Notes under the pieces: model-generated
Told to the model about the DNA's origin: nothing
What the model saw: only the letters and a program-made list of their open reading frames with translations
The model's database searches: none
Made by a program: the position numbers and the translations under genes
NCBI GenBank assembly: GCA_964601265.1
Contig: CAZRMT010000002.1
Location: forward strand, 2,560 to 66,559
Direction of reading: 5' to 3'
Source: an uncultured Christensenella sp.
Lineage (GTDB): Bacteria; Bacillota; Clostridia; Christensenellales; Borkfalkiaceae
DNA: 64,000 bases
Shown: positions 816 through 56,855 of the stretch, piece by piece
Layout: the number at the start of each line of letters is the position of its first letter
How positions within the stretch are numbered: the first letter of the stretch is position 1

Positions 816-3800
816 TTACGCCTTAATTCCGAAACCGTAGTTATCGATTATCATATATACGCTGTCGGCAGGTTTCGTCGTACCCGAATATCCTATTGCG
901 AAAGCTTGTAAATCGTTAATCGCTATTTCTTTATAAAGCGTGCCTTTACCGGAATTTAAAGCAAAATCTTGTCTTTCACCGGAAGCGTTCCAATATTGAA
1001 ACATAAATCCTTCGGCTGTTGTTTCATAGTCAAACCTCACAAACAAAGTTCCGTCGGTTCCGATTTCAAATTCCCACCACCAGTGATTTACGGTGTAATT
1101 AGAGAAAGTCATTATTCTACAATCGTTACCCGCTCCGTTCGCCCAATTGTTTGCATGCCCTTGAACGGCGTTGCCGGGGGTATATTTTAACGCTTTTCCA
1201 CCGTTGTAGTCTACCATAGACCTCATAGCGGTATCTTGACAAAACTCAACGTTACCGTCGTTTTCTTGATTGATATAAGTTTCGTCGTAGTTGGTATAAA
1301 ACAACGTATTACTACTAACTTTAAAGTTGGAACTTTCACCGTTGGAAAAAGTCAAAGTAATTATTTCGGTTCCGTACAATTGAGATACGAACGACTCGTC
1401 GAATACGATTTTACTGTCCGTATACTCTTTTATGTGCGATAGGCTCATATATCCGTTAGAAACACTGTAGTTATCTAATTCGGCACCGGTATAAAACGTG
1501 TTATCCCAGAAATTCGTTCCCTGTCTTTTAATCGCAGTAACCGTAACACCGCTAAATTCTCCGTTTACGGTTAATTCAGTTTGTCCGAAAGTCGTTTCTA
1601 TCGTGGCTTTATCTATTTTTATAGAACTTTCACACATTCCGAAACCGTAATTGTCTATTATCATATAAACACTATCGGCAGGCTTAGTGGTTCCTGCATA
1701 ACCTATCGCAAAAGCTTGCGTGTCGCTAGGTATTTCTTTGTAGAAAGAACCTTTACCCGAAGAAAGAGCCACACTGTTTCTTCCACCCGAAGCATCCCAA
1801 TATTGGAATACGAAATCTCCACTAGTCGTTTCATAGTCGAACGTTACGAATATAATTGAACTCGTATTGAAATCGAATTCCCACCACCAGTGATTTACTG
1901 CGTTGTTCGAGAAAGTCATTATTTTACAATCGTTATTATCGCCGTTCGCCCACATGTTCGCATAAGACTGAACTGCTTTACCGGGGGTATATTTTAAAGC
2001 TTTTCCGCCGTTGTAATCGACTATCGACCTCATAGCGGTATCTTGACAAGACCTTATATTTCCCTCGGTTTCCTCGTTGATATAGGTTTCGTCGTAATTA
2101 GTATAGAACATAGTATTACTCGTAACGGTAAATGTTCCCGTTTGTCCGTTGGAGAAGGTTATAATAAAAGTCTCCGTTCCGTAAATTTGGTCTACGAAAG
2201 CTTTATTAAACACTATCTTCGAACAAGTAAATTCTTTTACGTAGTCAAGGCTCATATAACCGTTGGTTACGGCAAAATTGTCTGAACCGTTGTCGTTATC
2301 GTAAGTATTATCCCAGAAATTCGTTCCTTGTCTTTTAATGGAAATTATCTCAACGTCGTTAAAATCTCCCATTATAGTTAAATCGCTGTTTCCGTAAACG
2401 ACTTCGGCGTTTTTCGTAACGACGTTAACCGTTCCGCTTGTTTCAACTTCGCTAATCAAGAAGTTGTCTACGTACACGTAACCTGCGCTTCCGCCTTTAA
2501 AGAACGCCCTTAAAAACAATCCTTTACCTATCGTTTCGCCGTTTACAATAGCTTCGAAATGGTGTTTTATGTTGTCGTTAGTCGCACCGATGAGTAAATC
2601 TTGTCCCCAGCTTCCGCTTTCGTTTCTATACAACAACTCGCCCGTAGTGGTGTTTTCCGTCGCATAGTCAAAAGACACTCTATAAGTTTTTCCCGAATCG
2701 AACCCTGCGTTGTACCAAGTATACGTACAAGACGGACTTTTAAGCGTAAGGTATCCGTTACAGTCAAGCGCCACATCTACGGTATTAGGTTTAATTCTCA
2801 AACATTTACCGCTACCACCCAAACTCGTAGGTGCGTCCGTTATGGACACCGCACTATAATATTGATATAACGAATTTGCTCCCACGTTTGAATTAGTCGT
2901 GTCGTGAATGGTCGTTACGTCATAATCGGTATAGAATATTACGTTAGTCGCCACACTGAAACTATACACGTCGTTGTTAGAAAGCACTACTTCGTATTCG
3001 GTCGTTTTATAATAGCGTTTTAACCATTCGGAAGAAATAAACAATTTACTTCCGCTTACGCTATAATAATCGGAAGAAATAATTCTATTGCCTTGACGTA
3101 ATTGTTTAACGGTAGTGCCGTTAAAATTAAAGTTAAGATTTATCCCTTCGTCTTTTCCGTATTTGAAAGTTGAAACAGCGGAAGAATTAAACGCAGTAAC
3201 AACGGAATTGTCCGTAATAACTTTACAGCTTGCGGGAATTGCGTCGCCTGCGTCCGTAACGGTTTTTAAAGTATGTTCGCCGTCGGAAAGCCTAATCATA
3301 GTATACTCGTTTATTTCAAGACAAGCGTTATCGGCGTTATACGACCAAACGTTGCCGTCAAGCGTTACTCCGTCAATGTAAACGTAATAAATTTTCGCCC
3401 CGTCAAGATCAAAAGGAAGTTCTAGCTTTCCACCGCCAAGCCTATCGTAATAATATGAAGAATCAGAAAAGGCAGGCGTTCCGGGGTAATCGGACTTCCA
3501 AATAGCCGTAAAAGTTACGTTGCTTGCGGGCATAGAAAAACTGTCGCCTACGGCGTAAATACTTCCGTTATAGCCCCATCCGATAAAAGTATAATATTGT
3601 TTATTAAACCCGTTTTCAGGCAAATTAAACGTTTCGTTCTCTTTTTTATCGGCAACGGTCACGTTTCCCGTTCCGCCGTCTGCGTCGAACTTAACCTCAT
3701 AGAACGTTTCGACAGGCGTATCTGTGGACGAACCCGAAGAACTCGAACTATCTTTTTCGTCATCGATAGAAGAACTCGAATTATCCTTTTCGCCTTCGCT

Positions 3801-4034
3801 ATTAGTAGAGCTATCAAAAGAAGAATCACTCTCCGTAGGACCTTCTACCGAGCTTTCAGACGAAGAACTCGTCGAGCTTTCCTCCTTACTTGAAGGACTA
3901 TCGCTTGTTGCCGAGTCCGACATCGTTACCGAACTTTGCGGTTTAGAACTCGTAGTATTACTAGAAGCCGAGCAACCGTAAGAAAAAACGAAAATCGAAC
4001 AAAGCAAGCTGACAATTAAAGTTTTTGCTTTCAT
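816..4034 (-). CDS. Giant surface lipoprotein (1072 aa): Ser/Asp/Glu-rich linker, one Listeria-Bacteroides (Flg_new) repeat, Ig-like beta domains and three jelly-roll CBM-like modules.
   Basis: ORF track entry; ATG preceded by GAGGAG. The signal peptide ends in ..FSYGC (lipobox-like). The Flg_new signature is YEVKFDADGG..YTFIGWGY..VTFTAIWK. The three modules end in VYVDNFLISEV, YMIIDNYGFGM and YMIIDNYGFGI. The last two cassettes are a tandem duplication. Confidence 0.85.
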   Translation of the reverse strand: MKAKTLIVSLLCSIFVFSYGCSASSNTTSSKPQSSVTMSDSATSDSPSSKEESSTSSSSESSVEGPTESDSSFDSSTNSEGEKDNSSSSIDDEKDSSSSSGSSTDTPVETFYEVKFDADGGTGNVTVADKKENETFNLPENGFNKQYYTFIGWGYNGSIYAVGDSFSMPASNVTFTAIWKSDYPGTPAFSDSSYYYDRLGGGKLELPFDLDGAKIYYVYIDGVTLDGNVWSYNADNACLEINEYTMIRLSDGEHTLKTVTDAGDAIPASCKVITDNSVVTAFNSSAVSTFKYGKDEGINLNFNFNGTTVKQLRQGNRIISSDYYSVSGSKLFISSEWLKRYYKTTEYEVVLSNNDVYSFSVATNVIFYTDYDVTTIHDTTNSNVGANSLYQYYSAVSITDAPTSLGGSGKCLRIKPNTVDVALDCNGYLTLKSPSCTYTWYNAGFDSGKTYRVSFDYATENTTTGELLYRNESGSWGQDLLIGATNDNIKHHFEAIVNGETIGKGLFLRAFFKGGSAGYVYVDNFLISEVETSGTVNVVTKNAEVVYGNSDLTIMGDFNDVEIISIKRQGTNFWDNTYDNDNGSDNFAVTNGYMSLDYVKEFTCSKIVFNKAFVDQIYGTETFIITFSNGQTGTFTVTSNTMFYTNYDETYINEETEGNIRSCQDTAMRSIVDYNGGKALKYTPGKAVQSYANMWANGDNNDCKIMTFSNNAVNHWWWEFDFNTSSIIFVTFDYETTSGDFVFQYWDASGGRNSVALSSGKGSFYKEIPSDTQAFAIGYAGTTKPADSVYMIIDNYGFGMCESSIKIDKATIETTFGQTELTVNGEFSGVTVTAIKRQGTNFWDNTFYTGAELDNYSVSNGYMSLSHIKEYTDSKIVFDESFVSQLYGTEIITLTFSNGESSNFKVSSNTLFYTNYDETYINQENDGNVEFCQDTAMRSMVDYNGGKALKYTPGNAVQGHANNWANGAGNDCRIMTFSNYTVNHWWWEFEIGTDGTLFVRFDYETTAEGFMFQYWNASGERQDFALNSGKGTLYKEIAINDLQAFAIGYSGTTKPADSVYMIIDNYGFGIKA
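819..2440 (-). repeat. Intragenic tandem duplication: two consecutive ~0.8-kb copies (about 819-1610 and about 1638-2440), each encoding an Ig-like + CBM-like cassette.
   Basis: The protein copies are KATIETTFGQTELTV..GTNFWDNTF..FYTNYDETYINQE..NHWWWEFE..YMIIDNYGFGIKA and GTVNVVTKNAEVV..GTNFWDNTY..FYTNYDETYINEE..NHWWWEFD..YMIIDNYGFGM. The DNA is alignable by eye, e.g. around 826-900 versus 1636-1710. Identity was not computed and boundaries are approximate. Confidence 0.8.
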
Positions 4035-4083
4035 TTTTAATCTCCTCGTTTATTTTTGTAGTAATTAAAAACTCCTTGGTAAT

Positions 4084-4113
4084 ATTTTATCATAATACAA
4101 CGACAAATTTCAA
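4084..4113 (-). promoter_or_regulatory. Putative SigA-type promoter for 816..4034 (TTGAAA-18-TAAAAT with an upstream TG).
   Basis: On the minus strand the -35 TTGAAA is the complement of 4108..4113 and the -10 TAAAAT is the complement of 4084..4089. It lies about 50 nt upstream of the ATG at 4034. Confidence 0.5.
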
Positions 4114-4182
4114 TACATATATACTGAAAATTCCTCATTCTCTCCCCCAGCAACACTGAAAATCGTTTTTCCTTTTTAATTA

Positions 4183-4213
4183 TAAAAAAACCGCCTGAAA
4201 AATTCAAGCGGTT
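4183..4213 (-). terminator. Rho-independent terminator after the GH36 gene.
   Basis: The hairpin aaccgc..gcggtt spans 4189..4213 and has an inner tga/tca stem. On the minus strand it is followed by a run of 7 T (plus-strand A-run ending at 4190). Confidence 0.6.
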
Positions 4214-4297
4214 AAATTCGTTTTAATTCCTTACGAAAAATTATATTGTAGTTTTTTATCCTGTTGCACGTAAAGAAAAACGAAATTTTTCATTAAA

Positions 4298-6454
4298 TCA
4301 TGCCTTATACGGCTCGATATACAGCATTATCGAAGTACGAGCTTCTGGGGCAGTAAGTTTTAATCCTTTCATTAAAGCCGACCCCTTTACCTTGGCAACT
4401 GAAAGTTTTCCGTCTACGTCCCTAACGGTATAATAACCGTTTTCCTTTAAACCCTTAGGATAAACCGTTATGGTCTTTTCATCACACTTGGTTTGCCTAA
4501 ACGCTTGTATAAGTCCGCTGTCGGCATCCGTATCGAAAAATTCGAAAACCGTCCATTTCGTATCGTCGCTAGTGGAATGGTCGGGCGTTAAAGCGTAAAA
4601 ATCTTTTAAAAGATATTTTTTCATTTCGTTAAACTCGCTAAGTCCTTGACGATATAAATCGAAATCAATGGTATCTCTTTCAAGATAATAGTTAGCTTGG
4701 GGATTATAAACGCACATATACGACGCACGAAGGGTGTAAATGTCGACGAAGTTGTCGGTAAGCGTTGCCGAATCTTTTGCAACCGTACCGTTAAACGGTA
4801 TCCACGAGCAAAGACGATTAGTCATAGACAATCTAGTTACCGTAAGAAAACGGTCGCTATCACTTCTGTTTAACGGAACGCCGTAACGCATAGTCAACAA
4901 GTCGTTTCTACCTCCGCCGGAAGCGCAACTGTCTACAAACGTACACTTTCCGTGTTCCGCACACCAATCTATAATACCCTGCCATAATGCGTAATGTCCT
5001 TGCATATAAAGGTTTTCCGTAATACCGATACGGTTTTTCCCCTCGTATCCGTCGCCGATAGTCCAGAATACTCCGGGGTCGATATTAAAGTCTTCACGGT
5101 AAAGGTCAATATCGTACTTTTCAAGGAAGTTAAGTATTCTTTCCAAAGTCCAGTCCAAACACTCTTTAATTCCTAAATTGTTTATATAAGAATTATTATT
5201 ACCGTGATCGGATAAAACCCATTCTCTTTTATAATTATAATTTGCAACCATTCCGTCGAGGTGCGATACCCTTTCCGGTTCGAACCATACGATAAATTTA
5301 CTGCCGTGCGCATGGGCGTCGTCTACACGTTCTTTAAAAGTGTTATCAGGCCATTTTACGGTATCTAGCTCCCACGTTCCTACCGTTCCCCACCAGTCAG
5401 CGGGAACAGTTTGCCCGTACGGGTCAAAATACCAGCCTGCGTCAAACCATTGATAATCTATATTTAATCCGTTTTCATACACGGCGTCAGTACTGTTTTT
5501 CCAAGTAGTATGGTCTTCCGTAGTACTTCCGTCCGTATTGTACTTATTAGGATTTTCCATATCGAAAGCAAAATACAAAGTAGAAAACGGCTGAACACAT
5601 TCGTCCGTGGAAGAATTATCTCTCGGATAATTACAATCGATAACCCATTTACGCCACATATTCATAGCCTTGTCTTCATCTTTTTCGTAATACCTTACAA
5701 CGCCTATCAAAGGAGTTTGAACTTCTTCTCCGGGTTTTAAATATGAGCAAAAACCAACTACGCCGGTTCCCGTAAAACGAGTACTTTCACTGCTTTCGTC
5801 ATATTTAAAATCTGCTTGCCACGTTCCTCCCCAACCGATAGCTAAAATAGCTCCGCCGTCATCGTTTTCAAGATTGAAATAAGGAAAATAGGTATGAGAA
5901 GCTCTTCCTCTGGTATTAGTAAAGTTAACGTCCTCTTGCGATAAGTCTTTATCATAAGGCTCATATTGATAATCGTAATCCCCGTATATTCCTTTTAAAT
6001 GCGCATTTTTACCTTTTATCGTCATATCGACCGCATTTATTTTACGCAACACTCCGCTGTTAGTTTCGCCCTCGTTTGCAAAATAAACCGTGTAATCGTA
6101 AGCGGAATAATCTTTATAATATCCCGATTCTATCGTAACTTTAATATTTTCACGACGAAGAATAATTTTTGTTATTATTCCGTTTCGCTCGCTATACGTT
6201 TCACATGACTCTTCTTTAAAATAAGCGGGGTGAAAACCCGAATAATAAACGTCGTCGTAAACGAAATTTATGGGGAAATTTGTTAAATCGTTAATAAAGC
6301 GGTAATATTCGCTCTCTGTTTTTTTCATATTCGCTCCTTGCGTTTGACTTTCGGTCTGACTTGAAGTAACTGCCATTGTTTTAGTTTGCGGTTTTATTAT
6401 AAAACCCGTCATAACGAACACCAACGACATTATAGCCGATAATATTCTTTTCAT
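4298..6454 (-). CDS. Secreted glycoside hydrolase family 36 (alpha-galactosidase-like).
   Basis: 718 aa with an N-terminal signal peptide (MKRILSAIMSLVFVMTGFIIKP). GH36-type motifs: FIVWFEPERV, the nucleophile-region analog LYREDFNID, and CASGGGRNDL (the C-x-GGGR-x-D acid/base region). Its ATG overlaps the stop of 6451..7563 as ATGA (6451..6454). Confidence 0.75.
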   Translation of the reverse strand: MKRILSAIMSLVFVMTGFIIKPQTKTMAVTSSQTESQTQGANMKKTESEYYRFINDLTNFPINFVYDDVYYSGFHPAYFKEESCETYSERNGIITKIILRRENIKVTIESGYYKDYSAYDYTVYFANEGETNSGVLRKINAVDMTIKGKNAHLKGIYGDYDYQYEPYDKDLSQEDVNFTNTRGRASHTYFPYFNLENDDGGAILAIGWGGTWQADFKYDESSESTRFTGTGVVGFCSYLKPGEEVQTPLIGVVRYYEKDEDKAMNMWRKWVIDCNYPRDNSSTDECVQPFSTLYFAFDMENPNKYNTDGSTTEDHTTWKNSTDAVYENGLNIDYQWFDAGWYFDPYGQTVPADWWGTVGTWELDTVKWPDNTFKERVDDAHAHGSKFIVWFEPERVSHLDGMVANYNYKREWVLSDHGNNNSYINNLGIKECLDWTLERILNFLEKYDIDLYREDFNIDPGVFWTIGDGYEGKNRIGITENLYMQGHYALWQGIIDWCAEHGKCTFVDSCASGGGRNDLLTMRYGVPLNRSDSDRFLTVTRLSMTNRLCSWIPFNGTVAKDSATLTDNFVDIYTLRASYMCVYNPQANYYLERDTIDFDLYRQGLSEFNEMKKYLLKDFYALTPDHSTSDDTKWTVFEFFDTDADSGLIQAFRQTKCDEKTITVYPKGLKENGYYTVRDVDGKLSVAKVKGSALMKGLKLTAPEARTSIMLYIEPYKA

Positions 6455-7563
6455 TGCTTCACCTCCGTCAAATAGGGTATTAAAGCAGAAATTCTATACT
6501 CTAGCCTGTTTGTCCAATAAGAAATTACTTGTTCGTCGCCATCTTCGGTTAATTGCGAGCAAATCGCAATAACTTTCTGTAAAGAACTCCAACTGTTTTT
6601 AGTATACACTTTCCCGTCTTCGTTAGTAATAGCCTCAGCTTGAGATAACACTCTAACCAACTCTGAAAAAGCTCGTTTATAAATAACGTTGTCGATAGCG
6701 TCGTTTAGCGTTTTTGCCACTTTGTCTATTTCATATTGCGTTACAGTCGTTTGCAAAACGGCAACGGCGTTATCGAGCGCGGTTTTTAACCTATTTCCGC
6801 TTTCTTCCGTTAGCTCGTCCGTATTATACCCTCTCGCCTTTTCTATTGCAGGAAAAAGTTCGGAATAATCATACGAATTACCCTCTCCTATAACGGTAAA
6901 GTTATCAAAATAATTAGGTGAATAAAAATTTCTCATTCCTATTTTACCTTCGTCGGTTCCGATATAATACGTTATCGTGGGCGTTTCTTGATAATCCACA
7001 AACGCATATAGCATACCGTTTTTCACAACTACCCTTAAATGAACTTTATCCATAGGAAGTTTTAATCCGCCTATTTCAACCTTTGCTCCAAGATAAGCGT
7101 TATCGAAACGGTGAAGTTTTAAATAATACGTCGTATCACCCGCTCCCCTTTCCAAATTGACGCACCATGCCTTTATTGCGTCCATATCGGAATCCGCTTC
7201 CGAAGCTTGCACGTAAATACCGCTATCGAATTTTCCGGACTTATTAATCGTCATAATATCCACGTTTACTTCAACGTCGGAATAACTACGCTTTTTTAAA
7301 ATAGCTTTTTGTTCGGCAAGAACCCAAAAATACAATTTGCCGTCCATCGTATATGGAAGTTTATCAAACTCCGTATACAAATCGAAATCGGTAAGTTGCC
7401 CGTTTTCGAAATCGTATACGAGCCTTCCGCCTGCCACCTCGTAATTTTCCACCGCCATAACCGAACGGCTTTTAACGGGCGCAAGCGTCAACGCCGTCGC
7501 TACCGCCGTTACGACGGCAACGATAAGCGTTAATATTTTTATATAATTGCTTTTTCTTTCCAC
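6451..7563 (-). CDS. Secreted or membrane-anchored LamG/DUF1080-like lectin-fold protein with C-terminal FIVAR-like helical repeats.
   Basis: 370 aa. GTG start with a GAGGTG RBS directly after the stop of the upstream giant gene. The N-terminus is hydrophobic (ILTLIVAVVTAVATALTLA). The jelly-roll core is DGKLYFWVLAEQKAI..NKSGKFDSGIYVQAS..GKIGMRNFYSPNYFDNFTVIG. The C-terminal helices are of the type LTEESGNRLKTALDNAVAVLQTTVTQYEIDKVAKTLNDAIDNV. Confidence 0.75.
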   Translation of the reverse strand: MERKSNYIKILTLIVAVVTAVATALTLAPVKSRSVMAVENYEVAGGRLVYDFENGQLTDFDLYTEFDKLPYTMDGKLYFWVLAEQKAILKKRSYSDVEVNVDIMTINKSGKFDSGIYVQASEADSDMDAIKAWCVNLERGAGDTTYYLKLHRFDNAYLGAKVEIGGLKLPMDKVHLRVVVKNGMLYAFVDYQETPTITYYIGTDEGKIGMRNFYSPNYFDNFTVIGEGNSYDYSELFPAIEKARGYNTDELTEESGNRLKTALDNAVAVLQTTVTQYEIDKVAKTLNDAIDNVIYKRAFSELVRVLSQAEAITNEDGKVYTKNSWSSLQKVIAICSQLTEDGDEQVISYWTNRLEYRISALIPYLTEVKQ

Positions 7564-7579
7564 AAAAACACCTCAAAAT

Positions 7580-10500
7580 TTAATTCTTTACGATTTTAAA
7601 ATTATCTATGGTCATACTCGTACCTTCATACAACGAAGCGTCCGATACGGGACAGTAAATACGGAATAAAACCAAATCTTCGGCATTAAAGGTAATACTG
7701 TAATGAGTTTCGTTTGCGTCTATTTTTGCTGTTTTAAAACCGCCTTCCGAAACGCTATAATAGAAAATCGAATAATAGCTTTCTGTCTGTTCGCCCAAAT
7801 CTATTTTATAATCGAAAGAAATAGTAATTTGTCCGACCGTATCGTAAGCGATATTGTACCAATAATTATTTCTACCCGTATGCGAGAAGTTAATAGCGCC
7901 GTTATTGCCGTTAGAAACAGCGTCGCCTCTAACCGTGTCGGAAGGAGTATAAACCAATTTTTTATTTCCTTCTTCTTCGATTATTTCAAGCATATTTTTA
8001 TCTTGCGTCCATTCGATCACGGGAGCACTGTCATCTACCGAAGTGTTGTCGAAGAACGATATATTGTCATAATCGATAAATAATAATACGTTGCTCTTTA
8101 ATACCAAGCTGAAAGTAACGTTGTTTGAAAGCGTAATATCGAAACGGGTTACACCATAAACAAGCGCAAGTATTTCTTGTTTTAACGTTATACCGTCGAC
8201 ACCTATTTCAATCCACGAAGTATCTACTGCAGACGGGGTTAAATACGCCGTATCCAAAGAGCCTGCAGAATTCATTCTGGGTGCTTGACGAAGAATTGAA
8301 GCAATAGTAACACCGCTTTCGAATTCGCCGTCCACCTTAAGTTCGGTCATCCCGTCGGTCACGTCGTAGTGAGAATTGTATATTTTATTCTTTCCTTGTC
8401 CGACGTTTTCTTTAACTCCGAAACCGAAATTATCAATAAGCATATACGTGCCTTCAGCGTCCGATTTTTGCGTCATAGCGCAGTGAACGTAAAATCTTTC
8501 AACCGTATTTGCGTCCAATTCAGTATAAAACGTTCCGCTTGTTCCGTCTATTGCAACAGTGTGATAAGCGTATTGATTATCTCTGTATATAAACTCGTAA
8601 TTAGGAGTTTTTCCGTCGGTCGTTACAATTTCGTAATCGAAGAACACTATCACGGTTTCTACCGATGCAAAATTAAAATTCCACCAATCGGAAGTAAAGT
8701 TACTGTTTGCAAACGTAAGACATCCGTTATTTACTCCACCCGTAAAACCTCCTTGCGAATGTCCTAAAGTAGCGTTTGTAGGCGTGTATTTATACTTTTT
8801 GTTTCCGTTGACGTCAACGATTTCAATCATACTCGTATCTTGACAACTTGCAACGTTTCCGCTACCAGTTTCAAGAGCCGTTTCTTCCTGAACGTAAGTT
8901 TCGTCCCAGTTACTATAATACATAACGTTACTTGTAAGCGTAAAGGTAATTTCCTTATTGTTGCTCAACACTATCGTATACGACATAGATCCGTAAACTT
9001 GGTCTATAAGTTGTTTAGATAAAGTTATTCCGTCCTTTGAAAGCGTTACGTAAGAAACGGGAAGCGTTCCGTCGGATTGAACCGCCGTATTAGTTCCGGT
9101 ATTATCCCAGAACAAAGCCCCTTTTCTTTTTACCGATAAAACGGTAAGACTTTCGTCAAATTCACCTTTTAAGAAAACCGTTTCTTGACCGTAAATAACC
9201 TTTTTACTTACTTCCGTTAAAACCGCCTTTCTGTTATCGACAACTACAAACGTCGTCTTATAAATTCCTCTTTCCCCTATAACGGTTAACTCGTGAGTTC
9301 CCGCTGTGAGTAAGTTGCACTTATTCTTATCTACGGTATAATTTATTTCACCGTTTAAAGCAAACTCGAATTCTTCATTATCTATTTTTACTTTTGTAAT
9401 ATTTTGTTTAGTCGCAAACGAAATTCCGTTCGCTCCTAAAACGTACTCTTTAACGTCGGTAAGGAAATACTCTGCGTCGTCGGTTTCCCATACACGTAAA
9501 TCGTCTACCATAATGAACTTATTGTCGCTTTCCTTAAAATCGGGCAACCTTATTTGCATAAGTCTGGGCAAATCGCAAGAGGCGGTAGTATTTGTAAACC
9601 AACCCGTATCGAAAACGTGTTCCTCTCCGTCTGCGGTTAAATACCAACGTATTTCATTCCATCCCCCGACGTCAACAACTTCGTAACCGCTTCCGAAGAA
9701 CGTATTAGCCACGTTGCTGTCGTGTCTGTCCATTATATAGAAGTAAGTTTCTTTTGCTCCGATATTCGAAGAAATTTTATAAGTGAAAGTAACCCTATAT
9801 TGATTGTTTTCGTTGGTAGAAACGTAAAGCCAATCCCAAACGTGAGGCATAAACTTCATCGAGAATAACGTCTTTGCTTCTGCGTTTTCCGTTGAACGAA
9901 CGAATAACGCTTTATTTCCCGTGCTTCTTTCTTCTATTTTTATAATAGAATTTCCGTTCATTCCCGAATACATCGGGCTACCTTGTACGTAAGTGTTGTC
10001 GTGATAACCTAAAATCGACGTATCGTCGTAGTTAGAAGACATCACGATAGAACTCTTTAAAATAATTCTTTCGGTCTTTCCCGTATTAAACGTTATCTCG
10101 AATTGAGTTTCCCCAAAGAACAAGTCCGCAACCGAAGAAGGAATTTCTACGTATCCTTTATCGTTAAGTCCCGTAACGAGGTTTAATAAAGAAGCGTAAT
10201 TCTTTTCAGTGTCGCATTGTGCAAAATCCCAATCGTTGTACCCGCCGTTGTAAACCTTTTTAATCTGTTTTACGGAAACAAGAGTGACGCCTTGGTCAAA
10301 ACTTCCGTAAATTTTAACGGCTTCGGCTTTATTTGCGTCGTATTTAGCCGTCGTATCTTTAATCGTGCAAGCACGGTTGTCTACGGCAGAAAACTTTACT
10401 TGTACGGAACAAATATCGGTCTTTACCGCAAAAGTATGTTCTCCAACCGTGATATTTCTTAAAGCGTCTGCTTTTATAGTCAACTTGTTTCCGTTTACGC

Positions 10501-11989
10501 TTACGAATTCGTTTACCAAAACGTTGTCAAGATAGAAATCACAATCAAAGTCGGATAAATCGCAATTAAGAACGTAATCTCCGTTTAAAGGATAATCTTC
10601 ACTTACCGAAATCGTCGGCTTGGAATCGAGTTCAACAACGGTAAAGTTATCAAAATAAATACAACCTCCCGCATCTTTAAAAAATGCTCTGACCCACGTT
10701 CCGTTTGCTATTTCTTCATAGGTTGCAACGGCTTCGAAATGGTGTAAAATACCGTCGTTTTCAGCACCTAATAATAAATCGAATTTCCAACTCGTATCCC
10801 TAGAACCGAAAAAGAAAGTTCCAGTGGAAGTTCCTTCCGTCATATAATCGAAAGAAAATGCGTAACATTTGTCTTTTGCATATCCTACGTTATACCAAGT
10901 CGATTCAAATTCAGACTTGCGCAAAGTGTATATACTATGGCAATCGTACAAAACGTCTTTCGTATTCGGCGTAAAACGAAGTACTTTTCCGTCCATTCCA
11001 GCTATTCCGTCTACAATCTTAACGTTGTCAGAATATTGATACAAAGAATTAAGTCCCGTGTTAGAATTAGACGTATCGTGAATGGTTACCATATCGTAAT
11101 CGGAATAGAATATAATATTGTTTTTTACGGTAAAGGAATATTTGTCGTTGTTTGAAAGAAGTAAAGTATACGTTGCCTCTTTAAAACTCTTTTTTAAAAT
11201 AGAACTTTTAATTGTAATTCCTTCGCTAGTCTGTTCGTAATGAGATTTATCAATTAAAAAATCCCCTTGCTTTAAAGACGTTATGGTCGTACCGTTAAAG
11301 TTAACGTTGAAACTTACGCCGTTTTCATACCCGTAACGGAATTGCTTTGTCGTAACCGTATCGAAAGAAGTTTTTACGGAATTATCCGTTTTTACAATAC
11401 AAGTTGCCGTATCCGCATCGGGTGCGTCCGTAATTACTTTTACTTCAAATTCTCCGTCCCCTAAAGCAAGAATTATTTCCGCTTTTATAACAAGACAAAG
11501 ACTGTCTTCGTCATAATGATAGTCGTCGGAATATAAAGTTTCGCCGTTTAACTCAACGTAGTACACGTTTCCGCCTTTAAGCGAAAGCGGAAGTTCTAAA
11601 TCTTCCCCGCCGAAACGGTCGTAGTTATATAAACTTTGCGAGAATTCAGGTTGTCCTATTACAGGCGCTTTAGGCGTCCATTTCGCCGTAAACGTTACGT
11701 TTTCGGACGGCATCGTAAAGCTATCGCCCGCATTATAGACGATTGACGAATATACCCACCCGCTAAAATCATAGTCATCACGGATAAAAGTATTTTCAGG
11801 TAACGAAAACACTTCGCCTTCTTTTTTATCCCCGACAACGGGAGCCGTTCCCTCTCCTTCTTCGGTTATAAAAGTTACAGAATACTTTTTGGCAGTATCG
11901 TTATTATTTCCGCTGTTTTTTACGCAGGCGCAAAGCGATAAAGCAAACACACACAGCAATACTACCGTTAAAAAAGATCTTCTTTTCAT
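7580..11989 (-). CDS. Giant surface lipoprotein (~1469 aa): Flg_new repeat, Ig-like domains and four jelly-roll CBM-like modules.
   Basis: The ORF is open to 12019, but ATG 11989 is preceded by AGGAGA at good spacing and gives MKRRSFLTVVLLCVFALSLCAC (lipobox). The Flg_new signature is YSVTFITEEGEG..YDFSGWVY..VTFTAKWT. The modules end in CIYFDNFTVVEL, FIMVDDLRVWE, YMLIDNFGFGV and MTIDNFKIVKN. The N-terminal ~530 aa are collinear with 816..4034. Confidence 0.85.
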   Translation of the reverse strand: MKRRSFLTVVLLCVFALSLCACVKNSGNNNDTAKKYSVTFITEEGEGTAPVVGDKKEGEVFSLPENTFIRDDYDFSGWVYSSIVYNAGDSFTMPSENVTFTAKWTPKAPVIGQPEFSQSLYNYDRFGGEDLELPLSLKGGNVYYVELNGETLYSDDYHYDEDSLCLVIKAEIILALGDGEFEVKVITDAPDADTATCIVKTDNSVKTSFDTVTTKQFRYGYENGVSFNVNFNGTTITSLKQGDFLIDKSHYEQTSEGITIKSSILKKSFKEATYTLLLSNNDKYSFTVKNNIIFYSDYDMVTIHDTSNSNTGLNSLYQYSDNVKIVDGIAGMDGKVLRFTPNTKDVLYDCHSIYTLRKSEFESTWYNVGYAKDKCYAFSFDYMTEGTSTGTFFFGSRDTSWKFDLLLGAENDGILHHFEAVATYEEIANGTWVRAFFKDAGGCIYFDNFTVVELDSKPTISVSEDYPLNGDYVLNCDLSDFDCDFYLDNVLVNEFVSVNGNKLTIKADALRNITVGEHTFAVKTDICSVQVKFSAVDNRACTIKDTTAKYDANKAEAVKIYGSFDQGVTLVSVKQIKKVYNGGYNDWDFAQCDTEKNYASLLNLVTGLNDKGYVEIPSSVADLFFGETQFEITFNTGKTERIILKSSIVMSSNYDDTSILGYHDNTYVQGSPMYSGMNGNSIIKIEERSTGNKALFVRSTENAEAKTLFSMKFMPHVWDWLYVSTNENNQYRVTFTYKISSNIGAKETYFYIMDRHDSNVANTFFGSGYEVVDVGGWNEIRWYLTADGEEHVFDTGWFTNTTASCDLPRLMQIRLPDFKESDNKFIMVDDLRVWETDDAEYFLTDVKEYVLGANGISFATKQNITKVKIDNEEFEFALNGEINYTVDKNKCNLLTAGTHELTVIGERGIYKTTFVVVDNRKAVLTEVSKKVIYGQETVFLKGEFDESLTVLSVKRKGALFWDNTGTNTAVQSDGTLPVSYVTLSKDGITLSKQLIDQVYGSMSYTIVLSNNKEITFTLTSNVMYYSNWDETYVQEETALETGSGNVASCQDTSMIEIVDVNGNKKYKYTPTNATLGHSQGGFTGGVNNGCLTFANSNFTSDWWNFNFASVETVIVFFDYEIVTTDGKTPNYEFIYRDNQYAYHTVAIDGTSGTFYTELDANTVERFYVHCAMTQKSDAEGTYMLIDNFGFGVKENVGQGKNKIYNSHYDVTDGMTELKVDGEFESGVTIASILRQAPRMNSAGSLDTAYLTPSAVDTSWIEIGVDGITLKQEILALVYGVTRFDITLSNNVTFSLVLKSNVLLFIDYDNISFFDNTSVDDSAPVIEWTQDKNMLEIIEEEGNKKLVYTPSDTVRGDAVSNGNNGAINFSHTGRNNYWYNIAYDTVGQITISFDYKIDLGEQTESYYSIFYYSVSEGGFKTAKIDANETHYSITFNAEDLVLFRIYCPVSDASLYEGTSMTIDNFKIVKN

Positions 11990-12041
11990 GATTTTCTCCT
12001 TAAAACTATTATTCGACAAAAGTTTCCCACTGTCTAATCCT

Positions 12042-12070
12042 ATTTTAAACTAATTATCACTACACTTCAA
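12042..12070 (-). promoter_or_regulatory. Putative promoter of the giant lipoprotein operon (TTGAAG-17-TAAAAT).
   Basis: The -35 is the complement of 12065..12070 and the -10 is the complement of 12042..12047. The -35 lies inside the palindrome at 12061..12075. Confidence 0.5.
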
Positions 12071-12075
12071 GTGTA
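12061..12075. promoter_or_regulatory. Perfect 15-bp palindrome TACACTTCAAGTGTA; candidate operator.
   Basis: Read directly from the sequence: TACACTT-C-AAGTGTA. It overlaps the -35 of the minus-strand promoter and ends 5 bp upstream of the -35 of the plus-strand regulator promoter. Confidence 0.4.
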
Positions 12076-12080
12076 AAGTA

Positions 12081-12109
12081 TTGCAATTTATTATGTGATA
12101 TGTTACAAT
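12081..12109 (+). promoter_or_regulatory. Putative promoter of the ArsR-like regulator (TTGCAA-17-TACAAT, TGT immediately upstream of the -10).
   Basis: TTGCAA at 12081..12086 and TACAAT at 12104..12109. The AGGAG RBS and ATG 12164 follow downstream. Confidence 0.55.
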
Positions 12110-12163
12110 TGTACTGTAATTATCGTTGTCGTACGATAAAATAAAATACGTTAGGAGTAAAAA

Positions 12164-13144
12164 ATGCTGAACAACCAATATAAACAGATTATTCAAACGG
12201 AAATTCCGTGGCTATACGAGGTTGCAAATGCGCAAGACCGAGTAGAAATAAGCAATATTTGTAGAGCACTTTCGTCCCCGATAAGGCTTGAAATTTTAAG
12301 TTTACTTAATAAACGCAATTATATAATGAACGAAATCGCAAACGAACTCGACCTTCAACCGTCTTCCACCGCTTTTCATTTGAAAATTTTAGAAGACGCT
12401 GGGCTCATCACCGTAAACACGTCGACAAAATATAAGGGCACGTTAAAGCACTATTCTTATAGCGTACGAGATTTAATGATTCGTTTACGCCCCGCAGCAG
12501 AACTACACAACGTTTCGTTAACGCCCGTTACTTACACGATAAAAATAGGAGAATTTTCCGATGCAAATTTTAATTTATATTCGGGGCTTGCTTCCGAAAA
12601 TAAATTATTAGTAGAAAATCACCCTAATTTAATGTTTGGCAAAGAACGTTTTCAGGCAGAATATATTTATAATATCCGTGAAGGCTTTGTGAAATATACA
12701 ATTCCCAACGAATACGCAAAAAATAATCCTTTATCCGAAATACAATTTTCTATGGAAATATCGTCCGAAACTATCGGATATAACGAAGACTTCCCCAGCG
12801 ATATAACCTTTTCGATTAACGGCGTTGAATTATGTACTTGGACGTGCCCAGGGTCTTACGGCGATAAATACGGAATATATACGCCCGCTTGGTGGTATCC
12901 AGAAAGTGCAAAATACGGACTTTTGACCACGATAAAAATAAAAGACAAAGGCGTATTCGTTAACGAGGAACTTTTTAACCGAAATATAGGTTTAAGCAAT
13001 TTGGATTTACCTAAGGGGATTTATACCGAACTGAAAATCGAAGTAAAACAAAATGCAAAACATTGCGGAGGTTTTTGTTTATTCGGCGAAAAATTCGGAA
13101 ATTACAATCAAGCCATTAACTTTACTGCTTTTTATAGAAAATAA
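12164..13144 (+). CDS. ArsR-family winged-helix regulator fused to an unassigned ~220-aa C-terminal domain (copy 1).
   Basis: 326 aa with an AGGAG RBS. The HTH is ICRALSSPIRLEILSLLNKRNYIMNEIANELDLQPSSTAFHLKILEDAGLITV. No TM segment. The C-terminal blocks DITFSINGVELCTWT, TPAWW, YGLL and AKHCGGFCLFGEKFGNYNQ are shared with 56890..57918. Confidence 0.8.
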   Translation: MLNNQYKQIIQTEIPWLYEVANAQDRVEISNICRALSSPIRLEILSLLNKRNYIMNEIANELDLQPSSTAFHLKILEDAGLITVNTSTKYKGTLKHYSYSVRDLMIRLRPAAELHNVSLTPVTYTIKIGEFSDANFNLYSGLASENKLLVENHPNLMFGKERFQAEYIYNIREGFVKYTIPNEYAKNNPLSEIQFSMEISSETIGYNEDFPSDITFSINGVELCTWTCPGSYGDKYGIYTPAWWYPESAKYGLLTTIKIKDKGVFVNEELFNRNIGLSNLDLPKGIYTELKIEVKQNAKHCGGFCLFGEKFGNYNQAINFTAFYRK

Positions 13145-13157
13145 TTCTTTTATTAAA

Positions 13158-13199
13158 GTCGAAAGGGAAAGTCGCTAAAAAGCGACTTTCCCTTTCGAC
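13158..13199. terminator. Bidirectional terminator hairpin between convergent genes.
   Basis: A perfect 19-bp stem, gtcgaaagggaaagtcgct / agcgactttccctttcgac, closes an aaaa loop. Both flanks are T/A-rich. Confidence 0.75.
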
Positions 13200-13230: not shown

Positions 13231-13662
13231 CTAAATAAGGGCTATTGCTACACCCACTGCGGCACCTACGATAGCTGCCCCGATGATAATTGCCATACCT
13301 ATCCAAAACCCGCTTTTACGGTGTGCAACGGCTTCTTCGGTTTCATTATTTTCAAACACGAAAGCATTGCCTCTAGCCATATTAAATTTATTCTGTCCGA
13401 CAAGACGTATATCTTCAAATCCGTCGGGCAACTGATAAAACTCGCTGCAATATCCTTTACTTAGCGTATCGGCAATCACAAAAATTTTCGCCTCGTGCTC
13501 GTCTATTTCAAAAGTAACCGTTTCGCCGTTTTTTATTTCGCCAAGTTTTTTACACGGAACGTCCGCAATCGTTAATTCGTTCGATTCGTCTTCTATATAC
13601 ACCTTCATTTTAACTAGCGACGCAACAAAAGTTTTCTTTCTCGTAATCGTTAAATATCTCAT
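13231..13662 (-). CDS. Hypothetical tail-anchored protein: beta-rich N-terminal domain and a Gly/Ala-rich C-terminal TM helix.
   Basis: 143 aa with a GGAGAG RBS. The C-terminus is FWIGMAIIIGAAIVGAAVGVAIALI. No family recognised. Confidence 0.6.
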   Translation of the reverse strand: MRYLTITRKKTFVASLVKMKVYIEDESNELTIADVPCKKLGEIKNGETVTFEIDEHEAKIFVIADTLSKGYCSEFYQLPDGFEDIRLVGQNKFNMARGNAFVFENNETEEAVAHRKSGFWIGMAIIIGAAIVGAAVGVAIALI

Positions 13663-51746: not shown

Positions 51747-52598
51747 TTAACATTTACCGCTTACGCTAAAATTAGTAAACGATACGTTTTGAGTTGCTGT
51801 TCGAACACCGTACCCCGAACCTTTAAGAAAACTATACTCGGAAAAAGCAATATACAATTTTTCGTTTACGTAACAATATAAATCCGTACCGTTTAACGTT
51901 ACTTTTAACGTATATTCGTTTTCGGCATTATAATTTTCGATAGGCACGACTTTTTCAGCCGTCCACGAACCGTTGTCAACTTTGCCGAGATACGCGTTAC
52001 CCTCTATATTTATAAAAAAGAAATAATACGAAACGCCGTTTTCCCAAAAAGAGGCGTTGCCGTTATTTTCCAAACAAACTATAATACCGCTGTCTGACGC
52101 ATCGGGAGAGTTCACCGTCACTTCAATCGTCCCTCTATCGAAATCCTCGTCGACGTTTGCCAATATCGTTTCTCCGCCACAAGAATTATATCCGTTTTCA
52201 AGCGTAACAATCTCCCCCTTTATAAGTGAAAGATTATCGTCGTAAACCTTTTCCCATAACGCCGTTATTTCCAAATTTTCCGTAATAGGTTTTGAAAAGT
52301 CAAACTCTTCTCCCTTTGCAAACCAACCTAAAAACACGTTATCGTCAAAAACGGGATTTTCGGGCTTTTGTATAACGCCGTCTTTTTTTACCAGATATTC
52401 CTTTATTTCGGAACCGTTGTTTTCATTTATCTTAACTATAAGATTTTCCTCTTGTTCTCCACCGCTTAAATCGCTATCCGTAAAAGAACTGTCGGAGCTT
52501 AAACTTTCGGAGGGCGTAGTGTATATCGAACAACAACAAAGCCCTAAACAAATCGCTAAAATAAACACGATTAAACTTTTCTTTATACGTTTTTTCAT
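51747..52598 (-). CDS. Lipoprotein: Ser/Asp linker, one Flg_new repeat and one LamG/DUF1080-like lectin domain.
   Basis: 283 aa with a Cys-containing signal LGLCCCS. The Flg_new signature is IVKINENNGS..VFLGWFAKGEEFDF..LEITALWEK. The C-terminus is GSGYGVRTATQNVSFTNFSVSG. Confidence 0.8.
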   Translation of the reverse strand: MKKRIKKSLIVFILAICLGLCCCSIYTTPSESLSSDSSFTDSDLSGGEQEENLIVKINENNGSEIKEYLVKKDGVIQKPENPVFDDNVFLGWFAKGEEFDFSKPITENLEITALWEKVYDDNLSLIKGEIVTLENGYNSCGGETILANVDEDFDRGTIEVTVNSPDASDSGIIVCLENNGNASFWENGVSYYFFFINIEGNAYLGKVDNGSWTAEKVVPIENYNAENEYTLKVTLNGTDLYCYVNEKLYIAFSEYSFLKGSGYGVRTATQNVSFTNFSVSGKC

Positions 52599-52619
52599 TT
52601 TTCTCCTTACTCCTCCGAC

Positions 52620-54323
52620 TTACCCTTTTATTTCTTCAAAAGACATACTGAATTGTCCGCTTAAATTGTAACAAGCGTCGTATTCGGGGCTGTAATAACA
52701 AAAATACATAGTTTTAGTTCTTTCGTTAACTTTTATTACGAGCAACGTATTCATTGCGCTTGTCATCATTGCGCCCTGTGCGTCAACTAAAAAAGAAGTT
52801 ACCGTATTCCCGTTTATTCCTTTATCTTGTCTCATAACAATATAGTCGCTACAAAGATGTCCGCTAAACACCATAAACACATTGGAATGTTTCTTTAAGC
52901 ATTTTTCCCACATATCGACTGCATTATTGCTTTTATCGTAATTTATAGTTATGGTAGGCGAATGTTTATCGTCACCGTCCACAAGACTTCCGTCAGGCTC
53001 TACGTAACTATGCGTAGTAACTATTACTCTCGAATTCGGATGCTCGCTTATAATTCTATCCGCCCAGTTTACAACGTTGGTTCTCGGTCCGTACTCTAAA
53101 CACATAATCAGATATTCAACGTTACCGATTTTTATTAACGAATAGTAATTATCCATACATCCATTTTTAAACGCCCCGCCGAAATATTCTGTTTTACTGT
53201 ATTTATCATAGGAAAAATATTTGTTAAACATAGTCGTGCTTCTGTCTTTCGTCGCCCAGTTATCGTAATCGTGATTACCGAGTATCACCGAATAAGGAAC
53301 CTTTCCGTCCAACATAGAAATGTACTTGCTAGCGTCTTGCCATTCTTTTTCGGTTGCCTCGGGATTTACGGAATACTTACTTTCAACCATATCGCCCAAA
53401 TACATTACGAATTGCGTATTTAATTCCTCGGCGCTATCTACTATCCATTGACTTTGCTGTTTAAAATTATCTTTTTTCCAGTAGTTCATCGCTTGCATAT
53501 CGGGAACAACCATTAACGTATAATCGTAATCTTCGACTTGTTGCACTTCAACGTATCTATCGTAAGTATTTACCTTACAATTATTTTTCGTGTCGGCAGT
53601 ATCTTCAATAAGCGTATTATCGAAACTCCATTCTTTACCGAAATACCAATTTGACGCAAGCCCCGCTCTTTGAGAAGAAGTTATTTCTTTACTTTTCATA
53701 TCTTCTTTTATCGTGGACAGACTTTGCTTCGTCGAGTAAACGGTTATTTGCTCGATTTTTCCGTAAAAAGGCGTTTTTTCATTATACCAGTTATTCCAAT
53801 CCGTCCCCACGCCGAATTTCATACCGCAAACGCTTTCTCCAAGCTCTACGTCAACTTCTTCGGCAAGCGTGCCGTTTACGTAATAATAAAGTTTTTTATT
53901 CTCTTTATCTCTAACGATAGCAACGTGAGTCCACTCGTCGTTTCTTAAATCAACGCTTTCAAAAGTGTGAACGTACCTTCCGTTATTCCAATATAAAAGA
54001 AAATTACCTTTTGTTCCCACTCCGAAATTTACGCTCCCCGCATAGCCTTTGTCAGCGTTATAGTAATTGCCGAATATTACTCCGCCCACGATATTATCCG
54101 CAAGAGAGGACGGTAACTGTATCCACGCTTCAAACGTATTAATAGTTTGCTCGTACGCCCTTTCGGTTTCATACATTATCCTATCGGTTACGATAGAATA
54201 AACCTTTTTCCCGTTTTTTAACGAATATGCGCTTACCCTATCGGAAGGCAGTCTGACAAAAGACGTGAGCGTTAACGATAATATTAACGAAAAAATTAAA
54301 AATACGTGTTTTTTAGTCATCAT
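52620..54323 (-). CDS. Secreted Laminin_G_3 (LamG) domain fused to a calcineurin-like metallophosphoesterase.
   Basis: 567 aa with a signal peptide. LamG region: FEAWIQLPSS..NFLLYWNNGRY..DEWTHVAIVRDKENKKLYYYVNGTL. Phosphoesterase motifs: VVPDMQ, YLGDMVE, LGNHDYD, TTHSY and FSGHL. Confidence 0.8.
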   Translation of the reverse strand: MMTKKHVFLIFSLILSLTLTSFVRLPSDRVSAYSLKNGKKVYSIVTDRIMYETERAYEQTINTFEAWIQLPSSLADNIVGGVIFGNYYNADKGYAGSVNFGVGTKGNFLLYWNNGRYVHTFESVDLRNDEWTHVAIVRDKENKKLYYYVNGTLAEEVDVELGESVCGMKFGVGTDWNNWYNEKTPFYGKIEQITVYSTKQSLSTIKEDMKSKEITSSQRAGLASNWYFGKEWSFDNTLIEDTADTKNNCKVNTYDRYVEVQQVEDYDYTLMVVPDMQAMNYWKKDNFKQQSQWIVDSAEELNTQFVMYLGDMVESKYSVNPEATEKEWQDASKYISMLDGKVPYSVILGNHDYDNWATKDRSTTMFNKYFSYDKYSKTEYFGGAFKNGCMDNYYSLIKIGNVEYLIMCLEYGPRTNVVNWADRIISEHPNSRVIVTTHSYVEPDGSLVDGDDKHSPTITINYDKSNNAVDMWEKCLKKHSNVFMVFSGHLCSDYIVMRQDKGINGNTVTSFLVDAQGAMMTSAMNTLLVIKVNERTKTMYFCYYSPEYDACYNLSGQFSMSFEEIKG

Positions 54324-54339
54324 TATGTTCTCCTTTATT

Positions 54340-56718: not shown

Positions 56719-56739
56719 AGCGTTTTCCTCCGCATTTTT

Positions 56740-56768
56740 ATTATACACCAATACTTATAAAATTCTAA
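56740..56768 (-). promoter_or_regulatory. Putative promoter of the island B operon (TTAGAA-17-TATAAT).
   Basis: The -35 is the complement of 56763..56768 and the -10 is the complement of 56740..56745. Confidence 0.45.
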
Positions 56769-56826: not shown

Positions 56827-56855
56827 TTGCTCTTAGTTTAACGTTATGTTATAAT
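56827..56855 (+). promoter_or_regulatory. Putative promoter of the second ArsR-like regulator (TTGCTC-17-TATAAT with TGT upstream).
   Basis: TTGCTC at 56827..56832 and TATAAT at 56850..56855. The TATGTTAYAAT context is shared with the promoter at 12081..12109. Confidence 0.5.

Follow-up and report, generated by a model that had tools for sequence, protein, structure and literature searches.

Two paralogous regulators in the window

The stretch of DNA analysed here (the window, 64,000 nucleotides of contig CAZRMT010000002.1 from an uncultured Christensenella sp.) carries two genes for ArsR-type regulators, hereafter copy 1 and copy 2, each of which is transcribed divergently from an operon of surface lipoproteins and secreted enzymes. 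A preliminary description of this DNA, made from its letters without database searches, had called both open reading frames (ORFs) and regarded them as collinear paralogs, and our analysis verified the coordinates as well as the paralogy: the two proteins align end to end over 319 residues with 35% identity (E 8e-63), and all the four blocks that had been quoted, DITFS(I/V)NG..LCT(W/Y)T, TP.WW, YGLL and AKH.GGF.LFG..FG.Y.Q, are common to both. The genes, and the parts of copy 1, are as follows.

12164..13144, plus strand: regulator copy 1, ORF of 326 aa, HTH_5 match with E 1.1e-11
12230-12484 (copy 1 residues ~23-107): ArsR-type winged helix
Copy 1 residues ~108-120: linker, of low confidence in the AlphaFold2 model
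12524-13141 (copy 1 residues ~121-326): C-terminal domain, a beta-jelly-roll in the AlphaFold2 model
56890..57918, plus strand: regulator copy 2, 342 aa, domains arranged as in copy 1

The ArsR-type winged helix-turn-helix that had been noticed near residues 30-95 was recovered by Pfam, where HTH_5/HTH_20 (ArsR) are the only models matching and span residues 36-84 in copy 1 and 34-79 in copy 2 (E 5.5e-10 for PF01022, HTH_5, in copy 2). No credible Pfam match was obtained across the C-terminal ~220 residues of either copy, and a PDB sequence search with the copies returned ArsR-type winged helices alone. In NCBIfam all the hits are of ArsR type and sub-threshold; the model for ArsR/SmtB metalloregulators (NF033788, HTH_metalloreg) scores 45.2 bits for copy 1 and 42.0 bits for copy 2, below its cutoff of 55. 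In the AlphaFold2 model of full-length copy 1, built on an alignment of 69 sequences (predicted local distance difference test, pLDDT, 93.1; predicted template modelling score, pTM, 0.71), the N-terminal part folds into four helices and a beta wing, followed by the linker and then by an all-beta domain. No helix follows the wing in this model, where beta strands come directly, and therefore the alpha-5 helix, which serves dimerisation and the metal site in ArsR proteins, is absent from it. Moreover, there is no CXC in the sequence of either copy, as had already been remarked for copy 1, and the N-terminal domain of copy 1 contains a single Cys; the residues of a metal site at alpha-3N (CXC) or alpha-5 (Asp/His) are thus found neither in the sequences nor in the model. 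The model also bears out a beta-rich C-terminal part and predicts no membrane helix in copy 1.

Since the full-length model gave mostly ArsR matches in Foldseek, the C-terminal domain was modelled separately (pLDDT 96.8, pTM 0.92), and the result is a predicted all-beta jelly-roll of ~210 aa. Compared with the PDB by Foldseek, it has no close relative, the best E being 1.8e-4 and the template modelling (TM) scores 0.30-0.44 at ~10% identity. All the matches with E <0.001 are beta-jelly-rolls, mostly carbohydrate-binding, such as the Aap lectin domain, carbohydrate-binding module (CBM) family 6 and polysaccharide lyase family 7 (PL7); CBM35, CBM36 and malectin come next in the list with E 0.003-0.005. 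The better matches, nearly all of them jelly-rolls and for the most part carbohydrate-binding, include the Aap/SasG lectin domain and PL7 lyases, as well as a porphyran-binding CBM, the lectin domain of Emp47p, the receptor-binding domain of botulinum neurotoxin and domain III of a Cry toxin. A profile of the C-terminal domain alone matches nothing in PDB sequences or Pfam. The statement that this part of the protein corresponds to no nameable domain is in this way sustained by the empty searches of Pfam, NCBIfam and PDB sequences, while the modelling and Foldseek search that had been proposed for it yielded a fold, the jelly-roll, but no close structural family, as the TM score stays at 0.44 or less. 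Across the family described below, the invariant or near-invariant residues include Tyr178, Glu198, Glu202, Ser212, Asp213, Asn219, Trp244 and several Gly.

The ArbA-type family and its gene context

Using genome comparison, Rodionov et al. (2021) predicted ArbA (Athe_1102, also ArbR) of Caldicellulosiruptor as the first ArsR-family regulator of carbohydrate utilisation (PMC8579813). ArbA is a predicted regulator of alpha-L-arabinoside utilisation and is encoded divergently from abfA, which belongs to glycoside hydrolase family 51 (GH51); three predicted sites lie in the shared intergenic region, and their position against mapped transcription starts is of repressor type (PMC8579813). To assess homology with our copies, metagenome contigs were searched with the arbA upstream sequence from the supplement of that paper, and a gapped pattern led to two contigs, one of which (L091) reproduces the published upstream alignment of C. 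bescii arbA. On this contig a 505-aa GH51 gene is divergent from a 304-aa ORF (L091:3012-3926) starting MKQ, and the ArbA-type protein thus encoded is 35% identical to copy 1 (E 1e-54) and 35% identical to copy 2 (E 1e-60) over ~300 residues, that is, over the full length. It contains all the C-terminal blocks and falls into the GH51 clade of the tree described below. A direct search for ArbA by its MKQ... N-terminus among the fetched family proteins gave no match. Judged by full-length homology, which covers the winged helix and the same C-terminal domain, both copies in the window are ArbA-type members.

The preliminary description had proposed the pairing of regulator and operon as an undescribed system. 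This holds for the C-terminal domain, which is unassigned in Pfam and PDB, but the regulators as such are not wholly undescribed, as one member, ArbA, was predicted in 2021 (PMC8579813). Three points appear to be new, from sequence comparison and structure models: surface-lipoprotein operons are linked to two clades of the family, operators are predicted for both copies, and the effector domain is an unclassified jelly-roll with distant likeness to lectins and CBMs. In the searchable literature we found no experimental characterisation of ArbA or any other member, only annotation-level mentions of ArsR-type sugar regulators. For example, a Geobacillus genome paper places an "ArsR family" regulator first in an arabinan cluster with ABC transporter, GH43 and GH2 genes (PMC4428132), which we liken to the family by its context alone.

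The family is large. Copy 1, used in a word-indexed search, has 696 relatives; nearly all of them measure 300-345 aa, and their annotation goes no further than "ArsR/SmtB family transcription factor". When the C-terminal 226 residues alone were compared exhaustively by phmmer with 1.84 billion representatives of clusters at 50% identity, 549 clusters matched at E <=0.001, with 362 at <=1e-10, so that the family comprises at least 549 such clusters. An ArsR N-terminus is present in 120 of the 123 representatives of at least 285 aa drawn from the best 150 of the 549, which means that the C-terminal domain occurs essentially in one architecture. When one genome per species was scanned, more than 546 family loci were obtained, and the hosts are Christensenellaceae (the closest, 52%), Lachnospiraceae, Oscillospiraceae, Paenibacillus, Clostridium, Halanaerobium, Treponema and some Alphaproteobacteria. 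One member, P0361, comes from a metagenome-assembled genome (MAG) labelled Candidatus Bathyarchaeia archaeon, which hints either at transfer beyond Bacteria or at a binning error.

For the survey of gene context, 80 loci were fetched, their genes were called, the three neighbours on each side of the regulator were clustered, and large clusters were named by Pfam. As sugar genes we counted components of CUT1-type ABC transporters, GH2, GH51 alpha-L-arabinofuranosidase, GH36-like proteins, the Leloir genes galK/galT/galE, and GFO/IDH/MocA-type oxidoreductases. At least one such neighbour lies within three genes in 52 of the 72 non-window loci, while Flg_new-type lipoproteins stand beside the regulator in only 8 of the 72, all in the two clades nearest to the window copies. 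In a neighbour-joining tree of 81 regulators the gene context tracks phylogeny: one clade goes with GH51, another with galKTE and several with ABC/GH2 genes, and the lipoprotein loci form two separate clades, each of which holds one window copy. Such a pattern is expected for local, effector-specific regulators of carbohydrate loci. The survey also shows the lipoprotein operons to be a lineage-specific target and not the defining partner of the family, so that the idea of a regulator class dedicated to surface-lipoprotein operons did not survive it.

Several genomes carry more than one member. In L089:8001-10110 two members are placed tail to tail, one of them divergent from an operon of a Flg_new lipoprotein and a LamG-phosphoesterase, the other, of 315 aa, divergent from a GH32 operon; several copies are likewise present in the MAGs MGBC162832 (L001, L004, L005) and RGIG8780 (L003, L010). 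This suggests one regulator per locus in such Clostridia.

The facing operons and the predicted operators

The genes of the two divergent operons, together with a hairpin after copy 1, are given below.

7580..12019, minus strand: first gene of operon 1, 1479-aa lipoprotein with a weak CBM_X2 match
6451..7563, minus strand: second gene of operon 1, 370 aa, N-terminal membrane anchor or signal, no Pfam family
4298..6454, minus strand: third gene of operon 1, 718-aa secreted GH36-like protein (Melibiase; PF02065, E 1.4e-12) with a signal peptide
54340..56751, minus strand: first gene of operon 2, 803-aa Flg_new lipoprotein
52620..54323, minus strand: second gene of operon 2, 567-aa secreted protein with LamG and Metallophos (calcineurin-like phosphoesterase) domains
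51747..52598, minus strand: last conserved gene of operon 2, 283-aa Flg_new lipoprotein
13158..13199, plus strand: terminator-like hairpin after copy 1, a perfect 19-bp stem with a T-rich tract

Every protein of operons 1 and 2 carries a signal peptide or a lipobox. The neighbourhood survey that the preliminary description had called for revealed that the divergent operon is conserved beside the orthologs of both copies. In copy 1 orthologs of 70-78% identity from other metagenomes, the divergent operon of lipoprotein, 366-aa protein and GH36-like protein is kept while the downstream flank differs: the giant lipoprotein has 1470-1488 aa in L081 and L083, the 370-aa protein has counterparts of 366-367 aa in L081, L083 and L085 (L081:4294-5394, L083:4272-5372), and the GH36-like gene is kept in L081, L083, L001, L005 and L028. 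The GH36-like protein is remotely related to alpha-galactosidases in the PDB, such as 2xn0 (E 2.4e-10). In L086, a 95% ortholog whose downstream flank is as in the window, the contig stops just upstream of the regulator gene, so this locus has no bearing on the linkage. Similarly, all the three genes of operon 2 are kept, in three differing backgrounds, beside the copy 2 orthologs L087, L088 and L089 (67-83% identity). A 58% relative of copy 2, L090, faces instead an operon of a solute-binding protein, two permeases, CBM9, GH43 and GH2.

The operators were predicted by aligning the intergenic regions of orthologs (phylogenetic footprinting), and the sites in the window are the following.

12060..12076, no strand: copy 1 predicted operator 1, CTACACTTCAAGTGTAA, one mismatch to the consensus TTACA-N7-TGTAA
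12103..12119, no strand: copy 1 predicted operator 2, TTACAATTGTACTGTAA, exact TTACA-N7-TGTAA
56803..56822, no strand: copy 2 predicted operator, ATTCCAATATTTATTGTAAT, a 20-bp palindrome with consensus ATTNCAAY-N4-RTTGNAAT

The two copy 1 sites lie 43 bp apart. They are two of the three matches to TTACA-N7-TGTAA with at most one mismatch in the 64 kb, a post hoc count, given that this very region supplied the motif. Independent support is provided by six other loci, L083, L085, L081, L082, L003 and L001, where the matches fall, with one exception, in the intergenic DNA before the regulator. The first five of these have two sites at the same 43-bp spacing as in the window, with one extra one-mismatch match inside a downstream gene in L083, while L001 (52% identical) has three sites in which the half-sites are kept and the 7-bp spacers are unrelated. 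Predicted operator 2 overlaps the -10 of a candidate regulator promoter at 12081..12109 (TTGCAA-17-TACAAT, with an upstream TG), and predicted operator 1 shares bases with the -35 of a minus-strand candidate promoter for the divergent operon (12070..12042). This layout fits a repressor that would shut off both genes. Another palindrome at 12120-12139, TTATCG-N8-CGATAA, was considered as an operator and rejected, as it is not conserved in the orthologs.

At copy 2, the consensus ATTNCAAY-N4-RTTGNAAT has a single zero-mismatch match in the window, and one match with 0-1 mismatch occurs at the same intergenic position in L087, L088, L089, L066 and L090, 82-134 bp upstream of the regulator start. 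The site in L066 has a compensatory change across both arms of the palindrome, and that in L090 lies ahead of the ABC/GH43/GH2 operon. In the window the site ends 4 bp upstream of a candidate -35, TTGCTC (56827-56832), which is followed by a candidate -10, TATAAT (56850-56855), both hexamers being read from the sequence; as the site is just upstream of the -35, it would be compatible with repression as well as with activation. Copies 1 and 2 have similar half-sites (TTACA versus TTNCA), in keeping with their similar recognition helices; the spacing differs by one base pair. A 17-nt direct repeat at 56742/56800 was also tried: its second copy alone belongs to the conserved palindrome, and the first, which overlaps a probable -10 and is weakly conserved, was retained as no more than a doubtful half-site.

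Some features around these operons deserve a mention. The TTG starts of 7580..12019 and 54340..56751 are both likely placed 10-11 codons too far upstream, the probable starts being ATG codons near 11989 (MKRRSFL...) and near 56718 (MKKILIV...), each after GGAG and at the head of a typical lipoprotein signal peptide. The gene for the 370-aa protein sits between those of the giant lipoprotein and the GH36-like protein, and overlaps the latter by 4 bp in the window. Both divergent operons are as first described, except that the 1072-aa lipoprotein gene at 816..4034 (minus strand) had been counted in operon 1; we dropped it from the core of this operon, since it is missing from the matching place in L081 and L083. 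Its product combines CBM_X2 and Flg_new domains with a Ser-rich linker, and the gene, which follows the GH36-like gene after a gap of 263 bp, may be a separate transcription unit. On the other side, the hairpin at 13158..13199 is placed between copy 1 and a convergent gene and is likely a bidirectional terminator. This gene, 13231..13662 on the minus strand, adjoins copy 1 and encodes a protein of 143 aa that has a hydrophobic C-terminal segment and belongs to no Pfam family; it is also present at the 95% ortholog locus (L086:1408-1839) and not in L081 or L083. The Christensenellaceae MAG locus nearest to copy 1 has a LamG + Metallophos gene of the operon 2 enzyme type (L001:11585-13063, minus strand) convergent to its copy-1-type regulator, and hence both kinds of surface operon can adjoin.

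Function of the regulators and comparison with known systems

Copies 1 and 2 are almost certainly local regulators of the operons they face, because the orthologs keep the divergent operon while the other flank changes and because the conserved palindromes are intergenic. The earlier guess of regulators for the facing surface operons was directionally right, and the copies are most likely sugar-responsive regulators that were retargeted to surface operons in Christensenellaceae-like Clostridia. With moderate confidence we propose that both are cytoplasmic ArbA-type one-component regulators, each of which binds its palindromes as a dimer and, through the jelly-roll, an imported sugar that arises from the action of the secreted products. 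The architecture, family membership, conserved linkage and conserved sites are shown by the analysis; what follows on binding to DNA, on the effector and on the sign of regulation is inferred. A regulator dimer would bind the intergenic palindromes; at copy 1 the sites 43 bp apart would cover the -10 of its own promoter and the -35 of the operon promoter, and since the core elements of both promoters are covered, both would be repressed. The jelly-roll domain would then take up an imported mono- or oligosaccharide freed by the secreted enzymes, a plausible candidate at copy 1 being a galactose-containing product of the GH36-like protein, and binding of the ligand would free the regulator from DNA. 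Glu198, Glu202, Asp213, Asn219, Trp244 and Tyr178 are of the residue kinds that line sugar sites, and may do so here. More tentatively, and as a possibility that falls somewhat short of probable, the C-terminal module may be an unclassified cytoplasmic carbohydrate sensor, a jelly-roll related to CBMs and lectins that was recruited as an effector domain, and the family may have expanded to one regulator per surface glycan-capture operon in Christensenellaceae-like gut Clostridia.

Being ArsR-type in their N-terminal domain, the copies could instead be classical ArsR/SmtB metal or redox sensors whose sensing site lies in the C-terminal domain, for instance at conserved Cys. In fact, columns 97, 140 and 200 are Cys in 73-91% of the 81 members, and five Lachnospiraceae members (L029, L043, L073, L074, L076) directly follow, on the same strand and 3-38 bp downstream, two genes of CobW-family GTPases resembling metallochaperones (cobW+CobW_C and cobW+DUF1980_C, e.g. 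L074:7778-9949). However, these three columns read Tyr, Ser and Ser in copy 1, and position 200 is Ser in the ArbA-type protein; helix 3 has no CXC and the model no alpha-5 for the usual His/Asp site; the HTH_metalloreg score of 45.2 stays under the cutoff of 55; and no metal transporter or resistance gene is near either window copy. Moreover, the CobW-adjacent regulators are nested in the galKTE clade, so that this metal-chaperone-like context looks secondary, and we consider a metal or redox sensor highly improbable. That the modelled protein is devoid of the alpha-5 dimerisation helix might also mean that the C-terminal domain is a dimerisation or scaffold module in its place, control being exerted by the abundance of the regulator or by a partner protein and not by direct sensing of a small molecule; the best full-length structural neighbours, 2p4w and 1uly, are indeed archaeal winged-helix proteins with C-terminal dimerisation domains, and the most conserved residues do not differ between clades and include many Gly, which points to a structural role. 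Yet a 210-aa jelly-roll is large for such a device, and the context-specific clades imply clade-specific signals. Local regulators beside sugar operons, such as those of the LacI, GntR, DeoR, ROK and AraC families, are typically effector-controlled, and we take a pure dimerisation module to be improbable as well.

As for the sign of regulation, ArsR-family proteins are mostly repressors, and the copy 1 sites overlap core promoter elements. Activation of the facing operon, at least by copy 2, finds its argument in the site that lies 4 bp upstream of the regulator -35 and ~57-78 bp from the divergent candidate -10 and occludes neither; these promoters are, however, consensus guesses, and the ArbA sites were judged repressor-type against mapped transcription starts (PMC8579813). 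Activation thus seems rather unlikely, although it is the least improbable of the three alternatives.

Several observations weigh against a sugar-sensing, ArbA-type regulator at these two loci. The CobW neighbours just described are one of them. Neither operon carries a transporter or a cytoplasmic catabolic enzyme, so that the route from an extracellular substrate to a cytoplasmic effector is not visible, and operon 2 contains no recognisable glycoside hydrolase, its enzyme being a phosphoesterase; the link to carbohydrate at copy 2 is implied solely by the LamG and Flg_new domains of the facing operon. The likeness to lectins and CBMs is weak (TM 0.30-0.44, ~10% identity), which makes the fold assignment generic, and the residues invariant across clades cannot by themselves account for differing sugar specificities. 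Furthermore, copy 1 and its clade depart from the family at columns conserved to 73-96%, with Cys97Tyr, Cys140Ser, Trp169Tyr, Cys200Ser, Asp231Ser and Asn305Cys. Copy 1 therefore misses three Cys that are present in most members, and W169Y, D231S and N305C, at columns conserved to at least 94% elsewhere, might mean that its ligand binding is altered or lost.

Members of the family are frequent in Firmicutes of the gut and in those that degrade plant biomass, and occur also in Treponema and some Alphaproteobacteria; their annotation as no more than "ArsR family" or "metalloregulator" misleads. Their recognition as regulators of sugar loci would improve the prediction of regulons and carbohydrate utilisation in poorly studied Clostridia of the gut, Christensenellaceae among them. 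For the effector domain there is neither a Pfam family nor a solved structure, and a structure with ligand would add a type of sensor domain to the bacterial sugar regulators, while the predicted operators are ready probes and the conserved pairs of regulator and operon hint at the use of the giant Flg_new lipoproteins. If sensing of carbohydrate in the cytoplasm is true, the arrangement would be a Gram-positive counterpart of the regulation of polysaccharide utilisation loci (PULs) without a linked transporter.

Among known systems, the ArsR/SmtB regulators (SmtB, CzrA, CadC, ArsR) share the winged helix and the palindromic operators with our copies. In Foldseek, CzrA, SmtB and CadC superpose over 75-80 residues with a root-mean-square deviation of 1.2-2.5 A, and the TM score is 0.63-0.75 when normalised to the target and ~0.22 when normalised to the 326-aa query. 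Unlike them, the window copies have neither the alpha-3N/alpha-5 metal site nor the alpha-5 helix, carry an extra 210-aa beta domain and stand in a sugar context. Phr (2p4w) of Pyrococcus and PH1932 (1uly), the best full-length PDB matches, likewise carry a separate C-terminal domain behind an ArsR-like winged helix, but the alignment is confined to the winged helix (73-101 columns), and there is no relation between the C-terminal domains. The TrmB family of archaea and bacteria joins a winged helix to a C-terminal sugar-binding domain and controls operons of sugar transport and hydrolases; its effector domain has a different fold, however, and there is no homology beyond a non-significant match of copy 2 to the helix-turn-helix model PF01978 (E 0.17), with no match in the C-terminal part. 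The modules of CBM6, CBM35 and CBM36 and the L-type lectins (7sie/8g1l, 5fui, 2w1w, 1ux7) have the jelly-roll sandwich and come closest in structure to the C-terminal domain, yet they are extracellular parts of enzymes and adhesins instead of cytoplasmic sensors, and the likeness (TM 0.30-0.44) comes with no profile match.

The comparison with PUL regulators, made already in the preliminary description, holds for the role and not for the ancestry. Like the Bacteroidota regulators, namely SusR, hybrid two-component systems and extracytoplasmic-function sigma/anti-sigma factors, our copies stand beside surface glycan-binding lipoproteins and secreted hydrolases, but they are not homologous to the Bacteroidota proteins, which sense in the periplasm or membrane, and the window loci have no SusC/SusD or transporter. 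A Gram-positive PUL is defined by a regulator, a transporter and a degrading enzyme together; in contrast, no transporter lies in 816..12019 or 51747..56751, although the related L090 has a solute-binding protein and two permeases along with GH43 and GH2. The nearest known system is ArbA. Its target is a cytoplasmic GH51 arabinofuranosidase, whereas the window copies face solely secreted or lipid-anchored proteins, and the operator sequences differ. On the other hand, ArbA and the window copies have in common the two-domain architecture, homology over the full length, the divergent orientation to the target, multiple intergenic palindromes (with a single clear site in copy 2) and the prediction as a repressor; moreover, ArbA-type regulators are placed beside carbohydrate-active genes, as copy 1 is in facing the GH36-like enzyme.

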